A DNA stretch of 64,000 bases from Gemmatimonadota bacterium (GTDB taxonomy: Bacteria > Gemmatimonadota > Gemmatimonadetes > Longimicrobiales > Gaopeijiaceae), in the NCBI GenBank assembly GCA_034521595.1, contig JAXHMG010000003.1:672001-736000 (forward strand), written 5' to 3'. The notes under the pieces are model-generated. The model was given only the letters and a program-made list of their open reading frames with translations. It was not told the origin of the DNA and did no database searches. The stretch's first letter is position 1, and every line of letters begins with the position of its first letter. Shown in pieces: positions 4,503 to 13,208 of the stretch. The translations under genes were made by a program, and so were the position numbers.

Positions 4503-6691
4503 CCACGCGACGGCGCACGTACGGGAGAGCGGCTTCGAGCGCGCTCTGGTCGTGTGGCATCGCCTTCTTGATCTCGGGATGCTCGGAGAACCCGGTCGAT
4601 CCACGACTCGCTCCGGTGGAGGTGGTCGTGGCCGAGGGGGACGGGCAGTACGGTACGGTCGGGACCGAGCTGGGAGAGCCCCTCCGGGTGGTCGTGCGTG
4701 AAGCGGCGTCGAAGCTTCCGGTCTCGGAGGTGAGCGTCCAGTGGACCGTGACGTCGGGCGACGCATCGTTGTCCGGTCCGGACGTCAGGGTCACGGACGA
4801 GGCGGGCATCGCGGAAACCACCCTTCGTCTCGGGCCGGCGGAAGGAAGGGTCACGGTCTCCGCGACGGTCGCTGATCAACCCGACGCGCACGTCACGCTC
4901 CAAGCGTTCGTGGTTGGCATTCCCCGGATCACGGCGGTCGATCCCGCCGAGGTCGAGGCGGGAGGGACGGTCGTGCTCGAGGGGGAGAACTTCAGTCCGA
5001 CACCGGAGCAGAACCTGGTCCTGTTCGAGGGGCTCCGAGGACGTGTGGAGACCGCGACCCCGACCCGCATGGAGGTCGAGGTTCCCGACTGTATCCCGAG
5101 CCGCTCGACCGTGGAGGTTCGCGCCGGTCTCGGCTCGGTGATGAGCGAAGCGGTGCCGTTGTCCGTGTCCGGGACGGGCGGTAGCCTGCCGCTAGACGTC
5201 GGTGATGTCGTCGACCTCGACGATCCCGACGGTCTGGACTGTGTCCGCCTCTCGGGCGCGGACAGCGCGGCCTACGTCGCGGTCGCGACTTCGGCGAGTA
5301 CGATCGCCGGTGCGACTCATCCGTTCCGTATGACCGGGCTCGCATCCGGGGGAGGGCGAACGACGGCCGGTCGGGCTCGAGACGTCCTGTCGGGGGCGCC
5401 GCCTCGGGGAGACGCCCCGGAGGAGCTCTCGGCGCAGGAGCGGTTCGAGTCGAGCTTGCGTCTCGAGGAGGCCGAGCTGGTCGAGAGGCGCGTCTCCGGA
5501 GCTCATCCGACTCCCGAGGCGTTGCGCGCGCCGGCGGCCGCCCCCTCCACTGGTCAGCACCGCGACTTCTTCGTGTTCAATGGCGGCGACGACGCGGCGG
5601 ATCGCTTCGACCAGGTCCGAGCCACCGTGAGGCACGTGAGTCGGCATGCCGTCATCTACGTGGACGACGAGGCGCCGGAAGGGGGTTTCACCGACGCGGA
5701 CCTCGACAGCATCGGGGAGCGTTTCGACGAAGTGATTCACCCCACCGTGACCGATGTGTTCGGTGCCCCGTCGGACCTGGACGGGAACGAGCGCGTCGCC
5801 ATGCTCTTCACCCCGGTCGTCAACGAGCTCACCGAGCGGGAGTCCGACAGCTTCGTCGGAGGGTTCTTCTACGGTCGCGACCTGATGCCGGAGCTCGCGT
5901 CGAGTAACGGGGGCGAGATCTTCTATGCGTTGGTCCCGGATCCGAACGGTGAGCACGGGGATCCGAGGCAGCTGTCGCAGGTGAGGTCCGTGGTGCCGTC
6001 GATTTTGGCCCACGAGTTCCAGCACATGGTCCACTTCAACCAGCGCGTGTTGCTGCGGGACGCCTCTCAGGACGCGCTCTGGATGTTGGAAGGGTTGGCA
6101 CAAATGGCCGAGGAGCTCGTGGCCCGCGCCTACGAGCGGCGGTCCGCGCCGTCGGACGCGGAGCTCTTCCGCGATGGGAACCGCCGCCGCGCACGGCTCT
6201 ATCTCGACCGCCCCGATTCGGTGAGTCTGATCGTGTCGAGCGGACGGGGCACGCTCGCCGAGCGTGGCGCCGGCTTTCTCTTTCTCTTGTATCTGCACCA
6301 GCAGCACGAAGGCGATCTCCTGTCCCGATTGACCCGTACCCGACGGACGGGGGTAGAGAACGTGGAGGCCGAGACCGGCCGCCAGTGGGGTGACCTCGTG
6401 CCCGAGTGGTCGGCGGCCGCGTTCCTGGACCGTGAGGGTGTTGGACGGGAAACGCTTCGCTACCGGGATTACGACCTTGCCGGCTTCCTGGGCGATCCTT
6501 TCCCGTTGTTCTGGGAGACCGGCGGTGATCGGGACTTCTCACGCTCCTCGAGATTGCCCTCTTCGGCGAGCCGATACTTCGTCCTGGTGCCCGGAGAGAC
6601 CGCCATCTTGAGCGTCGGTTTCGCGGGAGCGGGAGGTGGACGCCACGCGCTGTCCGCTCGGACGGGATTGAGGATCGTGCGGATACGGTGA
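4499..6691 (+). CDS. Lipoprotein with Ig-like (Big/IPT-TIG) domains and an HEXXH zinc metalloprotease domain (M30-like)
   Basis: Lipobox ISGC; GDGQ/TDEAG Big-domain pattern; PRITAVDP..GENF TIG pattern; ILAHEFQHMV..WMLEGLA; GTG start overlaps upstream stop. Confidence 0.7.
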   Translation: MTTRRRTYGRAASSALWSCGIAFLISGCSENPVDPRLAPVEVVVAEGDGQYGTVGTELGEPLRVVVREAASKLPVSEVSVQWTVTSGDASLSGPDVRVTDEAGIAETTLRLGPAEGRVTVSATVADQPDAHVTLQAFVVGIPRITAVDPAEVEAGGTVVLEGENFSPTPEQNLVLFEGLRGRVETATPTRMEVEVPDCIPSRSTVEVRAGLGSVMSEAVPLSVSGTGGSLPLDVGDVVDLDDPDGLDCVRLSGADSAAYVAVATSASTIAGATHPFRMTGLASGGGRTTAGRARDVLSGAPPRGDAPEELSAQERFESSLRLEEAELVERRVSGAHPTPEALRAPAAAPSTGQHRDFFVFNGGDDAADRFDQVRATVRHVSRHAVIYVDDEAPEGGFTDADLDSIGERFDEVIHPTVTDVFGAPSDLDGNERVAMLFTPVVNELTERESDSFVGGFFYGRDLMPELASSNGGEIFYALVPDPNGEHGDPRQLSQVRSVVPSILAHEFQHMVHFNQRVLLRDASQDALWMLEGLAQMAEELVARAYERRSAPSDAELFRDGNRRRARLYLDRPDSVSLIVSSGRGTLAERGAGFLFLLYLHQQHEGDLLSRLTRTRRTGVENVEAETGRQWGDLVPEWSAAAFLDREGVGRETLRYRDYDLAGFLGDPFPLFWETGGDRDFSRSSRLPSSASRYFVLVPGETAILSVGFAGAGGGRHALSARTGLRIVRIR

Positions 6692-6752: not shown

Positions 6753-7565
6753 ATGCCATCCGATGACTTTCGCACGCTGAGGCCCATGCACTGCACCACC
6801 TGTGGCGAGGCGATCGAGCCTGGTGAGGACCGCTGCACCACCTGCGGTGCGGTCGCGCCCGCGGCGCGGATCGTGGGACATGCGGACCGAGTGCGGGCCT
6901 GCCCTCGCTGCGCGTACCAGGGCGAAGGCGTGCCGTACTTTCGCCGGGCCGGGCACGTGGCTCTGTTGGTCGGGGTGAGCGTCTTTACCTACGGGATCGG
7001 CGGACTCGTATACTGGTTGGTGCGTCGGCACCATCTCGTGTGCCCGCGATGCGGCCTCGGTTGGGAGAATGCGGCCCGCGTGATGTCCGTGGCGGGCCCC
7101 GAGGCCGAGCAACATCTTTCGAACGGGAAGGGAGCGCTCGACGAGCCATTGCCGAGTGCGGGCCTCAAGCGGCGCATCGGTGGGGTGGCGATGGTCCTCT
7201 TGGCCACGCTGCTCGTGCTCGTGGGTATCGTGGAAGGGGAGGCGGCGGCCGTCGCGCTCGGAAGCGTGGTCGGGGTGGGAGGGTCGCTGACGTTCTACTG
7301 GGGCTGGCGGGGTCTTCAGGACCGGCGTCACGCCGTCCTGCGGGGGTTGCAGCGGCGGGTTCTCCACCTCGCGGCGGAGAAAGGGGGCACGCTCACTGTG
7401 ACGGAGGCTGCCGCGGAGTTGAACCTTTCGCTGTCCGCGGCGGAGAGGATCCTCACCGGAATGGACGATGATTTCCGTGTGCGGTCCGAGATCTCGCGGG
7501 AGGGGGTCCTCTACTACGAGTTCCCGGAGCTTCGGCACCGGGGAGACCTCGGGCCCGGGGTCTGA
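6753..7565 (+). CDS. Membrane protein with zinc ribbons (one LITAF-like) and a C-terminal winged-helix
   Basis: CTTC..CTTC; CPRC-hydrophobic segment-HLVCPRC; two further TM helices; LTVTEAAAELNLSLSAAERIL; start may be 6786. Confidence 0.65.
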   Translation: MPSDDFRTLRPMHCTTCGEAIEPGEDRCTTCGAVAPAARIVGHADRVRACPRCAYQGEGVPYFRRAGHVALLVGVSVFTYGIGGLVYWLVRRHHLVCPRCGLGWENAARVMSVAGPEAEQHLSNGKGALDEPLPSAGLKRRIGGVAMVLLATLLVLVGIVEGEAAAVALGSVVGVGGSLTFYWGWRGLQDRRHAVLRGLQRRVLHLAAEKGGTLTVTEAAAELNLSLSAAERILTGMDDDFRVRSEISREGVLYYEFPELRHRGDLGPGV

Positions 7566-7697: not shown

Positions 7698-9518
7698 ATG
7701 CTCCCGACACACATCAGTTCGTCCGACCCGATCCGGACCTCTCCGACCCGCGTCGTCGGTCTCTCGGAGCACAGAAGCCGTCGACGACAAAGGCTTGCGC
7801 TCGCGCGCGCGATCTTATCCGGCGACGCGGTGCGCGCCGCTCTCGTGGATCACCTGAGCGAATTCGCCCAGATCACTGGAGCGGACCGTGCCGCGGCCGT
7901 GTGGATCGACGAGTACAGCGAGGGTGGCGTCCATCCGCACGTAGTCCTCGACCTGCTGAGCGACCGTCCTCGCCGTGCATTTCCGCGCGAGCCACTCGAG
8001 CGAGCATGGGAGTTGGGTCTGCCGGGGACGTACGAAGCCGGAAGCTCCTCCAACCGGCATGACGCGGAAGCCTCGAGCTGCTTCGCGGTCGCGCTCGGAA
8101 GCGACGGTGCACGAGCCTGGTTCCTCGTTTCCGACTCGGTCGGTCCCCGGCCGTGGTTGACGGCCAAGGACCGAGAGCGGGCGATGTTCTTGTCCGGAGA
8201 GTGCGCGAGTGCGCTGCTTCACCGGGATCTCGATGAGCTCTCCGAGCAGCCGAAACGGAATGGTCGGGGCTTCGTCGGGCTACCCGTTCTCGACGATTGC
8301 GAGGGCCGGGAGGATCGCCCCGAGGTCACGGCCAAGGTGGAGCAACGCTTCTTGGTGGTCCGGCTCACGCGAGCGTTGATCGACGGCGAGCTCGATGACG
8401 CCCCCGAAGATACGTGGCGTGAACGTCTGGACACGGTACGGGCGGAGGTGGGCAAGCGTGTCGACGACGGGGGAGACGCCGAGGATCGCTGGGCCCCCGT
8501 GTTGGACGCCGTCGCCGGCCGTACTTTTGTAGACTTGGCCGACGCGCTCCTCCATGCCGGAAGATCGGCCGAAACCGAAGGGCACGTTCACGGGGCACTG
8601 GAGCTGTATCGTTGCGCATACGATGCGGCCGCGACCGTAATGCACGCGGGAGCAGCGGTGGATGCGGCTCGCTGCCAGGGAAGGGTTCAGCGCCGCCTTG
8701 CCCGATGGGAGGATTCGGTCCGCCAATACCAGCTGGCGCACGATGTGGCGGTGGCGGCGGAGCTCTGGGAGCGTGCGGCGCGGGTGCTCGTCGGTCTGGC
8801 CTCGGTGCGGCGGGAAGTGGGCAACATCCCCGACGCACGCAGGGAGCACGTACGGGCGCTCGAGTTCGCCGAACGGTGTGGTGATGCCGACACCGTCGCC
8901 ACCGTGCATCACGGCATTCTCACTGTCGAGCACGTGGCCGGCAATCTGGATGTGGCGCTACAGCACGGATGGTCCGCGGTGTCACAGTACGAGGACGAGT
9001 CCGGCAGGATGCGGTGCCTCGCCAGTCTGGCCGGGGTCTTGCTCGAGTTCGGTGATCGGACCGCGTCGGAAGACGCGTGGACCGTAGTCGCGGAACGCAC
9101 CGCTGATCTCTACTATCGGATCTATGCGCGTGATGCGCTCGCGTATTTGGCCGCCCTCCGGGGAGACTTGGAGGGATTCCAGCGACAGGCCGCTTTGTGT
9201 GATGCCCTGGACTGGGAATCGGGACCGCTGTCGGCGAAGGCCGAGATCCTCTATTACCGTGGCAAGAGCTTCCGTGCTCTCGGTCTCCGCGATACCGCGA
9301 AAGCCTGGCTCGAGCGTGCGGTGACGTTCGCGGAGGAGCACGGCTTCAATCGTACGTTGTTCGAGGCTGAGGACGAGTTGAAGATGCTCGAGCAGGAGAA
9401 CGCGGTGCGTAACCGCGCGGCCGAGGACGACGCTGCAAACACGACGCCCGCCGCTCCTCCCGAGATCCGTGACGGACTTCGAGAGATGCGACGGGCGGTC
9501 GCCGCGTCGGGCTCGTGA
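7698..9518 (+). CDS. N-terminal GAF-like domain plus tetratricopeptide-repeat protein (candidate peptide receptor)
   Basis: GADRAAAVWID..FAVALG..WFLV GAF-like pattern; several TPR-like helical pairs (e.g. AEILYYRGKSFRALGLRDTAKAWLERAV); GAGG upstream. Confidence 0.7.
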   Translation: MLPTHISSSDPIRTSPTRVVGLSEHRSRRRQRLALARAILSGDAVRAALVDHLSEFAQITGADRAAAVWIDEYSEGGVHPHVVLDLLSDRPRRAFPREPLERAWELGLPGTYEAGSSSNRHDAEASSCFAVALGSDGARAWFLVSDSVGPRPWLTAKDRERAMFLSGECASALLHRDLDELSEQPKRNGRGFVGLPVLDDCEGREDRPEVTAKVEQRFLVVRLTRALIDGELDDAPEDTWRERLDTVRAEVGKRVDDGGDAEDRWAPVLDAVAGRTFVDLADALLHAGRSAETEGHVHGALELYRCAYDAAATVMHAGAAVDAARCQGRVQRRLARWEDSVRQYQLAHDVAVAAELWERAARVLVGLASVRREVGNIPDARREHVRALEFAERCGDADTVATVHHGILTVEHVAGNLDVALQHGWSAVSQYEDESGRMRCLASLAGVLLEFGDRTASEDAWTVVAERTADLYYRIYARDALAYLAALRGDLEGFQRQAALCDALDWESGPLSAKAEILYYRGKSFRALGLRDTAKAWLERAVTFAEEHGFNRTLFEAEDELKMLEQENAVRNRAAEDDAANTTPAAPPEIRDGLREMRRAVAASGS

Positions 9519-9531
9519 TGAAGAGCGCCGA

Positions 9532-9669
9532 CTACATGCCGGGGTCGGGGCTGTGCTGGAGCTCACCCGGGTCGGGGCTGTGGTCCGGACCAGTGATCGA
9601 CGAGGTGGTGCAGGCGGCGGTTCCAACCGTGAGGAGAAGCACGAGGAGGGAGCGTCGTAGAGTCTTCAT
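9532..9669 (-). CDS. 45-aa secreted (lipo)peptide with tandem HSPDPG repeats (candidate signalling propeptide)
   Basis: MKTLRRSLLVLLLTVGTAAC-TTSSITGPD-HSPDPG-ELQ-HSPDPG-M; basic n-region, hydrophobic h-region, lipobox-like TAAC; AGGA about 10 nt upstream of ATG 9669. Confidence 0.75.
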   Translation of the reverse strand: MKTLRRSLLVLLLTVGTAACTTSSITGPDHSPDPGELQHSPDPGM

Positions 9670-9781
9670 TCGAGACAATCCTGAATCTGGAGTGGGCCCG
9701 GTGTGAGGGCAGTTCGTTCTTCCGCTTGATTCAAGTTTTCTCGACCCTGGACTGCGGAAGGTACCTTTTTGCTTCCAAGGT

Positions 9782-10600
9782 ATGTCTTTTACGAAGATCA
9801 TGGCCCTTATCGCGATGTTGACACGGGTGCGCGAGACGAACGAAGCTGTGACCCACGTGCTCGGCCGGGAGCACGAGATCGTCCGGGCGGCCACTTGGTC
9901 GAGGCTGGTCTGGTCGCTTCATGAGCGTCCGGTCACGGTTGCCGTGCTCGACGGTGCGGCGCTCGCTCGCATCCATCCCGAACGGGCGATCGTGGAGCTT
10001 CGGCGACGATATCCGAGCCTGGGGATCGTTGTCTTGGCCCGTGACGTGACCGACGCGGGTACGTGGTTCCGCCTTGGAAGAGCCGGGCTTTCCGACCTCG
10101 TGATTCTGCCGCTCGACGGGATGGCTCCAGCGCTGCCGAGGGCCATCCGGAACGCGCTCGACGGGAGCACGGCCTCGGTCGTGGAACGGGTCGTGAGCCC
10201 TTCGCTTCCCCGGAGGGAACGGAACGCCGTGCGCTGGACGCTCGAGGGGGTGCAGCGGGGGTGGGATACGGACGAAGTCTGCGCGCGCGCGGGGCTCACC
10301 CGACCCCACATGAGCGTCTGTCTGCGCGCGCACGGGCTCCCTTCGGTGGGACGTTTGCTGACGTGGGTCCGGATGCTCCACGCGGGGCGTTGGCTCTCTG
10401 ATCCCGGTCGCACGGGCGAGAGCGTTTCGCGGCAGCTGGGCTACGCCAACGGGGCGACGTTCAGGCGGGCTTTGAGGAACTACGTCGGGGCGACGCCGAG
10501 CGAGGTCGCGGCGCTGGGCGGCTTGCTCCCGGTGCTGGAATGCTTCGTCCAAGCATGCGATCTTGAAGTGCGGCCGCGCGCATTGAGCTCGGTCGCGTGA
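9782..10600 (+). CDS. AraC-family transcriptional regulator with N-terminal receiver-like domain
   Basis: C-terminal double HTH (..RMLHAGRWL..VSRQLGYANGATFRRALRNYVGATPSE); N-terminal VAVLD..LRRRYPSLGIVVL; start may be 9800. Confidence 0.8.
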   Translation: MSFTKIMALIAMLTRVRETNEAVTHVLGREHEIVRAATWSRLVWSLHERPVTVAVLDGAALARIHPERAIVELRRRYPSLGIVVLARDVTDAGTWFRLGRAGLSDLVILPLDGMAPALPRAIRNALDGSTASVVERVVSPSLPRRERNAVRWTLEGVQRGWDTDEVCARAGLTRPHMSVCLRAHGLPSVGRLLTWVRMLHAGRWLSDPGRTGESVSRQLGYANGATFRRALRNYVGATPSEVAALGGLLPVLECFVQACDLEVRPRALSSVA

Positions 10601-10627
10601 CGACCACGCCAGCCGGAAGGCGCAGTG

Positions 10628-10879
10628 ATGATGAGAGAGTTCACCGATCGCGAAGGACGAACGTGGACCGCCCTCGTGCGCGAGGCACCCGCGACCGATT
10701 ACAAGGGACGCTACCACCTGGTGTTGCGCCCTGCGGATGAACCGGCGCGGGAATATCCGTTGGAGGATATCCGTTGGAACAGCGAGCGGACGGGTCTGCG
10801 AACCATCGAAACCATGTCCGAGGTCGAGTTGCGCCGACGCCTCCGCTCCGCGGTCGGGCGGGGGGCGGAGGTCCGGTGA
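10628..10879 (+). CDS. Small hypothetical protein
   Basis: Compact ORF (MREFTDREGRTW..) with GGAAGG upstream and coding-like composition. Confidence 0.6.
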   Translation: MMREFTDREGRTWTALVREAPATDYKGRYHLVLRPADEPAREYPLEDIRWNSERTGLRTIETMSEVELRRRLRSAVGRGAEVR

Positions 10880-10909: not shown

Positions 10910-12688
10910 TCAGCCTCCTCCGACTCCGACTTCACCTTCGTTACGAGGGATGACCAACCACTGTCCCGCGAGGATGGTGTTGCGATCAACCCGTGGGTTG
11001 GCGTCGAGGAGGTCGGCGAGCGAGATGCCGTACTGGCGGGCGATGACGGTGAGGTTCTCTCCCGGGCCGATGCGGTGACGCTGCGCGCCACTGCTAGCGG
11101 GCGGTGACACTTCGCTGGCCGCGACCTGTTCGTCCGCCGCCCGGGCTTCACCGAGTCCGCGCTCGACACGGGCCAGTCGGGCGCCGATCTGGTTCTCGAC
11201 GGCTTTCGCTCTAGCCACCGAGGGTGTTCCATTGAGCATGATGGCGAACGCTAGCCGCTCGCCGTTCTGGGTACGGACGACGCCGCTGAGCGCGGAAACG
11301 CGCTCGATCGTGCCTGTTTTCGCACGCAGGTTGCCGGCGGCCGCCGTCCGGTACATGCGCGGGAGCTCACGCGCGCGTCCGGCCTCCGGGAGTGTGGCCC
11401 AGTAGGTGTTCCAATGGGGATGCTCCGCCATGCGGTCCAGGACCTCGACGAGTTGGCGCGGAGTGACCCGGTTGCCGACAGAGAGCCCCGAGCCGTCGAG
11501 GAGCTCGATTCCGGCCGTGTCGACCCCGATACGCGCCAGGGCACTCCGGACTGCCCGCGCGCTCGCGGAAGGGGAGCCGACATTCGTCTCGATCCGCCCG
11601 ATGGTTCGGAAGACCAGCTCCGCGAAGAGGTTGTGGCTCTGCTTGTTGATCACTTCCAGATACGCCCGAAGCGGATCGGACGCGTAGCGGGCCAGAACCT
11701 TCGTGCCCCGCGTGCCCGCGAACGGTGCAGACAGCCGTGGCACGCTCGAGCGCCCGGGACGGTCCACGGTTCGCACCGTGCCCGACACCTCGACGCCCCT
11801 GTCCTCGAGCGCCGCGTGGAAAACGGAGGCGGCGAATGTAGCGGGATCCGGGACGGTGAACTGTCGCCACGCGTCTCTGGCTCTGATCCCGATCGTACCC
11901 TCGACGCGAATCGGTGCGAGGGGTTCCTCCCGGAGGATCGCGACCCTTGGTCTCGCTCCAGCTACGGTTTGCGCCAGATTCGAGATATCCAACCCGGCAT
12001 GATCCGGAATCGATTGGACGCGAGGGGGGGCGCCGACCTCCGCTGCCGGGGAGATCCGCATAGAGACGACGTTCTCGTTGAACGACAGGGCCGAGATCGG
12101 CGCGGTGAAATGATCGTTGAGGTCTCGTGGGTCCCATCCCGTTGGGCGCAGTGGCCCCGGCAGAAAGGACGCATCAGCGACCAGATCCCCTCGTACTTCC
12201 CGGATACCCGAAGCCTCGAGTTGGTCGAGCAACTCCTGGAACACGGCATCCCTTCGGTGGTGAAACCGGTTCGACAGGCCCGGATCCCCCGTTCCGTAGA
12301 GGATCAGGTCTCCGTCGAGCACGCCGTCCTCCCGGACCGTGCCGTCCGTCATCAAATAGGTGAGGAAGCGGTAGTCCGGTCCGAGCACCTCGAGCGCTGC
12401 CGCCGTGGTGAGGAGTTTGACGTTGGATGCTGGAGCCAGTGGAACGTCCGGGTTGACGGAATACAGGGTGTCGCCGTGGTCCATGGATACCACGAGCACA
12501 CCTCGATCCGTGTCCTGCCACGAGCGCCCCAGAAGGAGTCGATCCAAGCCCGAGCCCAGGGACTCGATCGCGGTTCCAGTGGACGGTGTGGGCTGAGCGG
12601 ACGCTGTGGTGGGAAGCCCGAGCATGCCGACGAGGGCGGCTCCGGCGAAGACGGCACGGACCCGGGGGCTCCTTGCATCACGGGTCAT
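10910..12688 (-). CDS. dacB: D-Ala-D-Ala carboxypeptidase/endopeptidase PBP4 with C-terminal LysM
   Basis: PASNVK (SxxK), SHN (SxN), AKTG, GTGDP, DGSGLS; LysM HRIGPGENLTVIARQYG..NP. Confidence 0.92.
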   Translation of the reverse strand: MTRDARSPRVRAVFAGAALVGMLGLPTTASAQPTPSTGTAIESLGSGLDRLLLGRSWQDTDRGVLVVSMDHGDTLYSVNPDVPLAPASNVKLLTTAAALEVLGPDYRFLTYLMTDGTVREDGVLDGDLILYGTGDPGLSNRFHHRRDAVFQELLDQLEASGIREVRGDLVADASFLPGPLRPTGWDPRDLNDHFTAPISALSFNENVVSMRISPAAEVGAPPRVQSIPDHAGLDISNLAQTVAGARPRVAILREEPLAPIRVEGTIGIRARDAWRQFTVPDPATFAASVFHAALEDRGVEVSGTVRTVDRPGRSSVPRLSAPFAGTRGTKVLARYASDPLRAYLEVINKQSHNLFAELVFRTIGRIETNVGSPSASARAVRSALARIGVDTAGIELLDGSGLSVGNRVTPRQLVEVLDRMAEHPHWNTYWATLPEAGRARELPRMYRTAAAGNLRAKTGTIERVSALSGVVRTQNGERLAFAIMLNGTPSVARAKAVENQIGARLARVERGLGEARAADEQVAASEVSPPASSGAQRHRIGPGENLTVIARQYGISLADLLDANPRVDRNTILAGQWLVIPRNEGEVGVGGG

Positions 12689-12716
12689 CGGGGTACCCGT
12701 ATGTCGCGAGGGCCGG

Positions 12717-13208
12717 TCAGGCGCTCAGAGGGGTGTGCCCCCCCTCCGGTAGGCAATCCGCGCAATAGCCGGAAAGCTCGAAGCGATATCCGACGACGGT
12801 GAAGCTTCCGGCTCGCTCTCGTAGCTCCTCGAGCTCTCTTTTCGGCAACTCTCCGGGCAGGTCACGCACCTTGCCGCACGCGAGACAGCGGGCGTGATGG
12901 TGCGGGTCGGTGCGACCGTCGTAGCGGGAAGAGTCGTCGGTGTAGTTGAGCTTCAGGGCGAGGCCGCACCCCACCAAGGTTTCCAGGCTCTTGTAGACCG
13001 TGGCCAACGAGATGGTGGGAAGCTCGCCGCGCACGGCCACGAGCACTTCGTCCGCGGTCGGATGCGTGTCGGTGCTGACGAGATAGCGGTACACGGCGGC
13101 ACGCTGTTCCGTGAACCGCTGGCCGCTGGCCTCGAGTGCTTCGCGAAGCTGTGCTTCGCTGGTCTCGGGACTAGTGTCGATGTTCTGTTCGTCCTTCATC
13201 CGCTGCAC
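12717..13208 (-). CDS. Fur-family regulator (PerR-like)
   Basis: HPTADEV, SLATVYKSL, HHHARCLACG, CADC; start may be 13199. Confidence 0.9.
   Translation of the reverse strand: MQRMKDEQNIDTSPETSEAQLREALEASGQRFTEQRAAVYRYLVSTDTHPTADEVLVAVRGELPTISLATVYKSLETLVGCGLALKLNYTDDSSRYDGRTDPHHHARCLACGKVRDLPGELPKRELEELRERAGSFTVVGYRFELSGYCADCLPEGGHTPLSA

Follow-up and report, generated by a model that had tools for sequence, protein, structure and literature searches.

Do a small exported peptide and two regulatory proteins encoded beside it in a Gemmatimonadota genome form a peptide-signaling cassette? The three genes in question lie at positions 7698 to 10600 of the window, by which we mean the whole stretch of DNA that was analyzed (64,000 nucleotides [nt]; contig JAXHMG010000003.1, positions 672,001 to 736,000), and encode a tetratricopeptide repeat (TPR) protein, a very small predicted lipoprotein precursor, and an AraC-family regulator. 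A first-pass annotation made from the sequence alone had read them as a quorum-sensing-like module analogous to the RRNPP systems of Bacillota, in which a TPR receptor is paired with an adjacent secreted propeptide. We found that the TPR, mini-lipoprotein, and AraC genes behave as one unit in inheritance, loss, and duplication, and the peptide-signaling interpretation is partly supported. Our tentative reading, whose chances we place a little below even, is that of a self-contained Gemmatimonadota cassette in which the peptide would be the signal and the TPR and receiver-AraC proteins the responders. The locus is arranged as follows.

7698 to 9518, plus strand: TPR gene, 606 amino acids (aa), from the list of open reading frames (ORFs), with the TGA stop codon at 9516 to 9518
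9532 to 9669, minus strand: mini-lipoprotein precursor gene (predicted), 45 aa, from the ORF list, with the stop codon at 9532 to 9534
9670 to 9799, no strand: divergent control region, 130 nt, from an alignment of 61 intergenic regions
9800 to 10600, plus strand: gene of the receiver-fold AraC regulator, 266 aa, identified by HTH_18, with its start taken from conservation

The TPR and peptide genes are convergent, with 13 nt (9519 to 9531) between their stop codons, and the coordinates first assigned to this GAF-like/TPR gene and to the 45-aa gene were borne out. A divergent region of about 110 bp had also been proposed between the peptide and AraC genes. The divergent layout stands, but the AraC start at 9782 on which that length depends (112 nt to the peptide start) is less likely than the conserved ATG at 9800, which is M7 of the ORF starting at 9782 and leaves 130 nt.

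To collect comparable loci, we used related genomes together with one genome per GTDB species (67 loci); removal of identical TPR proteins left 63 loci with a TPR gene, a small ORF on the opposite strand, and an AraC gene, in this order. With an automatic rule (start codon, K/R, hydrophobic stretch, [GAS]C, and 8 to 110 further residues), 61 of these 63 non-identical loci gave a small lipobox ORF on the expected strand. The remaining two were found by eye, one being interrupted by an assembly gap inside the repeats (L049) and the other having an unclear start (L096). Applied to the opposite strand of the same stretch, the same rule gave 2 hits in 63 loci, and in other windows of equal length from the same loci it gave 20 in 1,396; the occurrence of the small ORF is far above chance. 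As the first-pass annotation would have it, homologues of the TPR gene thus adjoin, in all 63 loci, a small secreted ORF whose C-terminus carries motif copies. The exact peptides of the window and of two other loci (L003 and L005) figure among the called genes of public sets, where their sole name is “hypothetical protein.” All named relatives come from metagenome-assembled genomes (MAGs) labeled Gemmatimonadota, Gemmatimonadetes, Longimicrobiales, Gemmatimonadales, Gemmatimonadaceae, or Gemmatimonas.

The peptide encoded in the window reads MKTLRRSLLVLLLTVGTAA-C-TTSSITGPD-HSPDPG-ELQ-HSPDPG-M and can be divided into the following parts.

Residues 1 to 19, minus strand: signal peptide (predicted)
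9610 to 9612, minus strand: lipobox Cys20, followed by the linker TTSSITGPD
9565 to 9582 and 9538 to 9555, minus strand: the two HSPDPG copies, the peptide terminus being M45

Its N-terminus combines a charged segment (MKTLRR), a hydrophobic one (SLLVLLLTVG), and TAA before the cysteine, which is the pattern of a signal peptidase II precursor. The lipobox cysteine is kept in all of the peptides collected, namely, 62 of the window type (family f1) and 37 of the type found in the distant families f4 and f5. Moreover, 96 of the 99 peptides have G, S, T, or A at position +2 after this cysteine, and none has D. According to pattern inspection, position -3 is often not L, V, or I, giving a relaxed lipobox. 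The small ORF is therefore best described as encoding a lipoprotein-type precursor and predicted signal peptidase II substrate; the export signal assigned at first pass stands, but the product would be a lipoprotein acylated at Cys20 and not merely an exported peptide. No match to the 45-aa peptide was found in a scan of Pfam and NCBIfam. The host genome encodes LspA and one OppA-type binding protein (an SBP_bac_5 gene), a point of compatibility only.

Beyond the cysteine, a linker of the form [T/S/I/V/L/M/A]-[G/A]-P ends 6 to 8 residues downstream in 53 of 62 window-type peptides and is found in 34 of 37 distant-type peptides (33 at position 6 and one at position 3). The C-terminal motif is a heptad, roughly x-x-P-[D/G]-x-G-x, present in one to eight tandem copies, with a period of 7 in 41 of 44 tandem cases; in 37 of the 44, the last full unit is followed by 0 to 2 residues before the C-terminus. 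Examples include HTPDPGL, HNPDGGN, YQPGPNA, YNPDPGQ, IQPGTGN, HSPGSGN, YDLGSDN, and GTLGSGN. When units were compared within genes and summed over 40 peptides, 208 extra synonymous codon variants were counted versus 40 extra amino acid variants, of which about one per peptide corresponds to the register edge of the unit finder. This excess shows that the amino acid sequence of each repeat unit is under purifying selection and that the array is not a fresh product of DNA slippage. Copy number varies even among members of the same 90%-identity cluster (2 versus 3 units and 5 versus 6). The peptides of the f4 loci mostly end in a loop, e.g., C-D-T-N-N-S-N-T-C-H, and some carry linear repeats such as SGYNGSGT and SGAQGSGT. 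Besides the lipobox residue, the number of cysteines is 0 or 2 in 99 of 99 peptides, never 1 or 3. The mature product would comprise 10 to 68 residues, and it has no globular domain. Metal binding by histidine repeats was set aside, as the first residue of the unit varies freely among H, Y, I, V, G, and F, and a glycosylation sequon (N-x-S/T) across the unit joints fits some motif types only, as judged by eye.

A few peptide genes have unusual structures. Two tandem mini-lipoprotein genes lie between the TPR and AraC genes at L085 (4831 to 5135), both with IIPGPNT, which in one of them is inside the Cys loop. At L048, L050, and L051, the repeats are degenerate or truncated, with motif-like units in another frame; either genuine decay or misassembly of the repeats could account for this. 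In the MAG of L092 (around 5200 to 6300), the peptide and AraC genes are separated by about 1.1 kb of inserted DNA with a long ORF of about 360 aa in the opposite orientation.

In the window’s family, conserved gene order extends across P859, UP270, the TPR, peptide, and AraC genes, DS84, an S13 peptidase gene, and a Fur gene. Because this whole neighborhood is syntenic, synteny alone proves little, and losses and rearrangements are more telling. Two genomes of 97% and 95% completeness (G009 and G015) keep UP270 and the DS84-S13-Fur block but lack the TPR, peptide, and AraC genes altogether, the gap being occupied by a transporter-like gene of 314 to 333 aa. No TPR or AraC orthologue was found elsewhere in these two genomes. 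In G005, the third genome without a TPR match, the gap is an assembly edge, with AraC fragments where a contig begins. DS84 and UP270 had been considered as cassette members and were rejected, since both stay where the cassette is missing.

Conversely, the trio remains linked in families f3, f4, and f5 despite entirely different flanking genes. In f3, an AraC gene is followed by the TPR gene on the same strand and then by a mini-lipoprotein gene on the opposite strand, while in f4 and f5 the TPR gene, the reversed mini-lipoprotein gene, and the AraC gene are followed by a genuine stand-alone receiver gene. This Response_reg gene overlaps or trails the AraC gene in 23 of 30 f4 loci as well as in L033 and L034. 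A search with the TPR protein of L033 gave matches in 133 of 401 phylum-sampled genomes at an E value of ≤1e-15, including 90 of 166 in f4 and 38 of 94 in f5. This tally takes in G096, G192, and G214, which are flagged as unpublished, and that of the related genomes takes in G025; their sequences were not used. Among the 30 best f4 loci, the AraC gene lies downstream in 24, four of the six exceptions being contig ends, and a mini-lipoprotein gene was recovered by the rule in 26 and by a relaxed rule in one more, with two contig ends and one locus without any (L139). The co-occurrence of the three genes is hence seen both in their joint absence from G009 and G015 and in their persistent, though rearranged, linkage in other families. 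Two f4 loci deserve mention: L127 and L131 each have one in-frame TGA in the TPR match and no AraC match, and the receiver gene comes directly after the peptide gene.

Eight genomes carry two or three cassettes (G080, G191, G217, G241, G256, G293, G363, and G377). The TPR proteins of these paralogous cassettes fall into two old clades that differ in loop type, mostly C-D-[W/Y/V]... in one and C-D-[T/I]... in the other, L140 being the exception. This sorting of loop types by TPR clade indicates that whole cassettes were duplicated and that peptide and TPR protein diverged together. More generally, the motif type tracks the TPR clades. Covariation between TPR columns and the motif was set aside as a test, because the motif classes coincide with the clades and there are too few independent changes.

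Alignment of the 61 intergenic regions also delineated the signals between the divergent genes. An AGGA Shine-Dalgarno sequence precedes the peptide gene (complement of 9679 to 9682), and a conserved element at 9779 to 9799, GGTATGTCTTTTACGAAGATC, with the consensus GGTATATCTTTTTCGAAGATCATG, abuts the AraC ATG. The block does not preserve a reading frame, an extra base being present in L003, for example, which argues for a DNA or RNA element and for an AraC start at 9800. Of the 63 loci, 60 contain the core TCTTTTNCGAAGAT with up to two mismatches (exact in 29, one mismatch in 21, and two in 10), compared to three matches elsewhere in the same loci (939,382 nt). In the whole 3.49-Mb genome, it occurs once at ≤1 mismatch. 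This single genomic copy suggests that the cassette regulates itself, as it appears, and not a wider regulon. A second, weaker block, TCAAGTTTTCTCGA (9731 to 9744), lies about 50 nt upstream and resembles the element at 9779 to 9799 by eye. The two blocks could be a two-site operator with a spacing of about 50 nt. No consensus promoter or terminator was found in a scan of 9350 to 9900.

We then considered whether the 606-aa protein could be a receptor. Its sole Pfam match is TPR_12 (E value of 2.2e-9), and it has no signal peptide, no hydrophobic N-terminal segment, and no helix-turn-helix (HTH), as the first-pass annotation had noted for the latter, which points to a cytoplasmic protein. An AlphaFold2 (AF2) model built from a 61-sequence alignment (pLDDT, 89.6; pTM, 0.85) shows the element order a-a-b-b-a-b-b-b-a followed by 19 helices, corresponding to two parts.

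7761 to 8246, plus strand: alpha/beta N-domain, probably GAF-like, residues ~22 to 183 (AF2 model)
8319 to 9509, plus strand: TPR solenoid of about eight TPR pairs, residues ~208 to 604 (AF2 model)

Foldseek and VIA-align comparisons of the model returned TPR solenoids only. The scores were as follows: APPBP2, VIA Z 18.7; LGN, Z 17.8 (Foldseek E value of 1.5e-7); phage Phi105 Rap with its peptide, Z 17.5 (2.3e-5); MalT domain III, Z 16.9 (4.4e-5); RapH, Z 16.8; NprR, Z 16.1; and PlcR, Z 14.2. The likeness therefore extends to solenoids that bind extended peptides, i.e., LGN, peptide-bound Phi105 Rap, and NprR. We did not place the protein in the RRNPP family, because the RRNPP receptors do not stand out in fold scores and do no better than other TPR solenoids. 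Likewise, no Pfam match to a Rap- or RRNPP-specific family was found in the protein.

We tentatively call the N-domain GAF-like. A Pfam GAF_2/GAF match was obtained in one of 14 orthologues (E values of 0.006 and 0.014), and an hhalign comparison with five GAF_2 domains from the host genome gave a probability of 19% and an E value of 0.0012 over 126 colinear columns. In a language-model search, the ten best named clusters were all GAF (score, 0.95), and the order of secondary structure elements in the AF2 model is compatible with this fold. A profile search of the PDB with the N-domain gave no match. The distant TPR proteins of f3, f4, and f5 are 413 to 445 aa long and lack this domain, and these TPR-only forms have no other sensor domain. 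The earlier idea of this domain as a second input consequently does not extend to the core of the system, since most members of the wider family are without it. At G000:C2:198492-198683 (L002), a 175-aa frame interrupted by a TAA contains a weak paralogue of a portion of the domain (40% identity over residues 126 to 188; E value of 5.5e-6), and several relatives have short matches of the same kind.

The third protein contains an AraC-type HTH (HTH_18 E value of 1.8e-12, found in 20 of 20 orthologues), and its profile matches the DNA-binding domain of AdpA in the PDB (1.9e-14). NCBIfam gave only AraC-family matches below threshold.

~9800 to 10201, plus strand: degenerate receiver domain (ESM Atlas model and profile)
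~10280 to 10507, plus strand: AraC-type HTH (Pfam HTH_18)

The N-domain profile matched receiver domains in the PDB (HupR, 4.5e-5; FleR, 2e-4), and residues 8 to 140 of a public ESM Atlas model align to Response_reg clusters with template-modeling (TM) scores of 0.79 to 0.83. Pfam Response_reg itself was detected in one of 20 orthologues searched as single sequences. Compared to the stand-alone receivers of L033 and L034, the phospho-acceptor Asp is kept (D51 from the 9800 start) and the DD pair and the Lys of the KP motif are missing; the alignment has 17 to 20% identity, and its register is approximate. “Pseudo-receiver,” the label originally proposed, thus seems a fair name for this domain, given the receiver fold and the missing residues.

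How might these parts work together? The genomic behavior of the cassette seems a better match to a receptor-ligand pair than to a regulator with an ordinary target, on account of a motif that is selected yet variable among lineages and paralogues, strict linkage, joint loss and duplication, and a self-contained divergent region. In the mechanism that we propose, the AraC regulator would act on the 130-nt divergent region and thereby control the peptide gene and itself. The precursor would be exported by Sec, lipidated at Cys20, and cleaved by signal peptidase II, after which a protease would free the C-terminal part, possibly at the candidate cut site [T/S/I/V]-[G/A]-P, 6 to 8 residues past the cysteine. 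The repeats would then give several copies of one short peptide, the candidate C-terminal ligands being HSPDPG, HSPDPGM, and HSPDPGELQHSPDPGM. Feedback could follow either of two routes. The peptide may be taken up and bind in the concave groove of the TPR solenoid, as in RRNPP systems, or it may be read by an unlinked envelope sensor and a phosphorelay, as hinted by the stand-alone receiver gene of f4 and f5; the latter gene suggests that a phosphorelay feeds the circuit at least in these two families. Because the TPR protein has no DNA-binding domain, it would act through the AraC protein by binding its degenerate receiver domain, similar to the action of Rap proteins on response regulators. 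In the window’s family, the GAF-like domain would add a second, small-molecule input. That the cassette is a signaling circuit of some kind, with sensing outside the cell counted in, appears somewhat probable, while the import-and-bind version specifically is rather doubtful. The same doubt applies to the view that this is the first cytoplasmic-receptor peptide quorum sensing in an outer-membrane phylum, with clipped lipid-anchored propeptides, multicopy or disulfide looped, a TPR reader, and a receiver-AraC output.

Several observations weigh against a peptide signal read by the TPR protein. The Z scores of Rap, NprR, and PlcR (14 to 17.5) are in the same range as those of axonemal, APPBP2, LGN, and MalT TPRs, and the best Rap match of the TPR profile in the PDB (E value of 0.034) lies among OGT, designed TPRs, and others. 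As weak evidence, longer forms fusing receiver, AraC, and TPR parts were searched for and none were found. The mature peptide is predicted to be lipid anchored, Gemmatimonadota have an outer membrane, so that release and reuptake of a peptide would entail two crossings of it, and the cassette encodes no protease or permease in the loci examined. The 0-or-2 cysteine pattern implies a disulfide, as judged from the sequences, and action outside the cytoplasm, and the f4/f5 motif lies within the Cys loop, a poor fit to a linear imported ligand. In addition, heptad position 1 is loose (H, Y, I, V, or G), with H and Y mixed within one peptide in L073 and L084. Finally, the motif drifts with phylogeny and shows no sharp switching, and the co-divergence of peptide and TPR protein may be plain co-inheritance.

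Some of these features would be expected of an envelope effector. Here, the TPR protein and the receiver-AraC protein would be a sensor pair whose sole target is the mini-lipoprotein, which stays anchored and sends no signal back; the inputs would be the GAF-like domain in the window’s family and a phosphorelay in f4 and f5, and the product might serve, for instance, as a tag for recognition at the surface, as a shield or decoy, or as a hydrophilic coat that protects against stress. The lipobox cysteine of every homologue recovered, with its +2 residues (G/S/T/A in 96 of 99, never D), agrees with such a role, as does the pairing of extra cysteines in 99 of 99 peptides, which points to folding outside the cytoplasm. 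The two regulators have no export signals, there is no linked protease or permease, and the divergent promoter layout with its single-copy cis element suits a one-target regulator. Close relatives also differ in repeat copy number, a feature shared with variable surface lipoproteins. However, a mature product of 10 to 68 residues without a globular domain is small for a structural role, and a simple target needs neither strict linkage across class-level divergence nor whole-unit duplication nor peptide-TPR co-divergence. The TPR-only forms, moreover, have no obvious sensor domain for another input. All considered, we view an envelope effector as a rather unlikely explanation.

If the disulfide loops are taken to suit an extracellular ligand, the lipopeptide, anchored or released, could instead be read by an unlinked membrane kinase that phosphorylates the stand-alone receiver, and the TPR protein, without ever meeting the peptide, would modulate that receiver or the receiver-fold AraC protein in the manner of Rap. 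The Response_reg gene that overlaps or trails the AraC gene (23 of 30 f4 loci plus L033 and L034) speaks for this arrangement, and the receiver domain of the AraC protein retains an Asp aligned with the phospho-acceptor; yet the same domain lacks the acidic pair and the Lys of normal phosphotransfer. Nor is there a receiver gene in the window’s family, where the next gene, DS84, has no Pfam match and remains upon cassette loss, and no kinase is linked in any locus examined. We therefore consider sensing outside the cell improbable as the sole account. Several identical core-like units in a small precursor of lineage-variable sequence also recall multicore precursors of ribosomally synthesized and posttranslationally modified peptides (RiPPs), and a modified or antimicrobial peptide, such as a RiPP or a lipopeptide bacteriocin, could be placed under two regulators. 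Four genomic contexts, however, show no modifying enzyme, immunity gene, or exporter in or beside the cassette, and a Sec/lipobox leader is unlike known RiPP leaders, making this the least credible of the explanations by far. The reading of the peptide as a signal for the TPR and AraC proteins thus remains the one that we prefer, in the tentative terms given above.

Comparison with known systems clarifies what would be shared and what would be new. The RRNPP-analogous reading advanced at first pass gains from the linkage of a small secreted ORF, the divergence of paralogues, and purifying selection at the level of the unit, but the TPR fold is no closer to RRNPP receptors than to others. One survey predicts 211 of 2,734 RRNPPA propeptides, a minority type, to be substrates of signal peptidase II (PMC9765709), and tandemly duplicated, processed pheromones are described among Rap-Phr propeptides (PMC11343458). 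These precedents soften the objections to the analogy raised by a lipoprotein precursor and tandem copies. As in the Rap-Phr systems of Bacillus and its phages, a TPR protein without a DNA-binding domain adjoins the gene of a Sec-exported propeptide with variable C-terminal residues, several paralogous pairs may occur per genome, the partner is of the response regulator type, and some Phr precursors have tandem copies (PMC11343458). The folds are alike as well (Phi105 Rap, Z 17.5; RapH, Z 16.8). Unlike Rap-Phr, the cassette shows no sequence kinship past generic TPR (E value of 0.034) and a fold score no better than that of unrelated TPRs. Its precursor is a predicted lipoprotein, often with a Cys pair, its genes are convergent and not codirectional, and it has its own receiver-AraC output, a GAF-like domain in the window’s family, and a Gemmatimonadota host.

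NprR-NprX, PlcR-PapR, and AimR-AimP likewise combine a TPR receptor with an adjacent exported propeptide, a C-terminal signal, and autoregulation (PMC9765709). Their receptors bear their own HTH, whereas the cassette would delegate DNA binding to the AraC protein, and the fold scores of NprR (Z 16.1) and PlcR (Z 14.2) are below those of Rap. An effector domain on the receptor itself, i.e., an N-terminal HTH or phosphatase domain, is typical of RRNPP proteins; here the N-domain is GAF-like at most and absent in f3, f4, and f5. RRNPP propeptide ORFs adjoin the receptor gene and have 20 to 120 aa and an export signal, as does the small ORF here, and their mature peptides of about 5 to 10 residues are released, imported by Opp, and bound by the TPR solenoid. 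Enterococcal sex pheromones derive from lipoprotein precursors, being cut from the signal peptide, and are sensed by PrgX-type receptors. They resemble the cassette, as proposed here, in having a lipoprotein precursor as the source of a peptide signal and a cytoplasmic repeat protein as receptor, but the variable, selected part of the cassette peptide is the C-terminus of the mature lipoprotein. InvF-SicA and MxiE-IpgC consist of AraC activators that need a TPR co-activator, whose availability depends on an exported partner. They too pair an AraC-family regulator with a separate TPR protein, but their TPR proteins are small type III secretion chaperones with translocators as partners, whereas the cassette has no linked secretion system and its AraC protein has a receiver fold. 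Among surface lipoproteins, those of the Vlp type in Mycoplasma have variable tandem repeats, and entericidins and colicin lysis proteins are mini-lipoproteins. The likeness lies in a lipobox precursor of about 45 aa or in C-terminal tandem repeats with variable copy number; these proteins differ in having no dedicated TPR and AraC pair and no sequence likeness in Pfam or NCBIfam.

RRNPP surveys frame peptide signals with cytoplasmic TPR receptors as a specialty of Bacillota (PMC10075063 and PMC9765709). A full-text literature search returned no title or abstract opening that describes such a system in Gemmatimonadota, and no description of the three-gene cassette was found in Pfam, NCBIfam, the names of protein collections, or literature listings. 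What we describe would thus be peptide signaling with a TPR partner, built from different parts in a phylum without a known counterpart. The genomic hallmarks of peptide signaling are found here in a widespread, little-studied outer-membrane phylum of soil and sediment, and the parts, a mini-lipoprotein propeptide and an output delegated to a receiver-AraC protein, are new. If the cassette signals, it would widen the known range of peptide communication and offer small orthogonal peptide-regulator pairs for synthetic circuits, and some genomes would run two or three orthogonal channels. If it does not, it is still an unannotated regulatory unit of three to four genes with matches in 133 of 401 sampled genomes, in which tiny lipoprotein genes labeled “hypothetical” are under clear selection.

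Genes flanking the cassette were also inspected. Upstream, an 859-aa ORF (P859; 4112 to 6691, plus strand), whose true start may be further in, combines Big_1 and TIG domains with a lipobox-like LISGC and the zinc-protease-like motif HEFQH. Its place upstream of the cassette is conserved throughout the family, and as a putative secreted protease it could be a candidate for peptide processing. It is followed by UP270 (6753 to 7565, plus strand), whose 270-aa product has a double zinc ribbon at the N-terminus, hydrophobic segments, and a weakly HTH-like C-terminus. Downstream, DS84 (10625 to 10879, plus strand) encodes 84 aa and begins 25 nt past the AraC gene; it matches no Pfam family, and its orthologues are 47 to 79% identical. 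The segment from 10910 to 13208 on the minus strand encodes an S13 D-Ala-D-Ala carboxypeptidase bearing a LysM domain at its C-terminus and then a Fur-family regulator, both of which are syntenic across the family.

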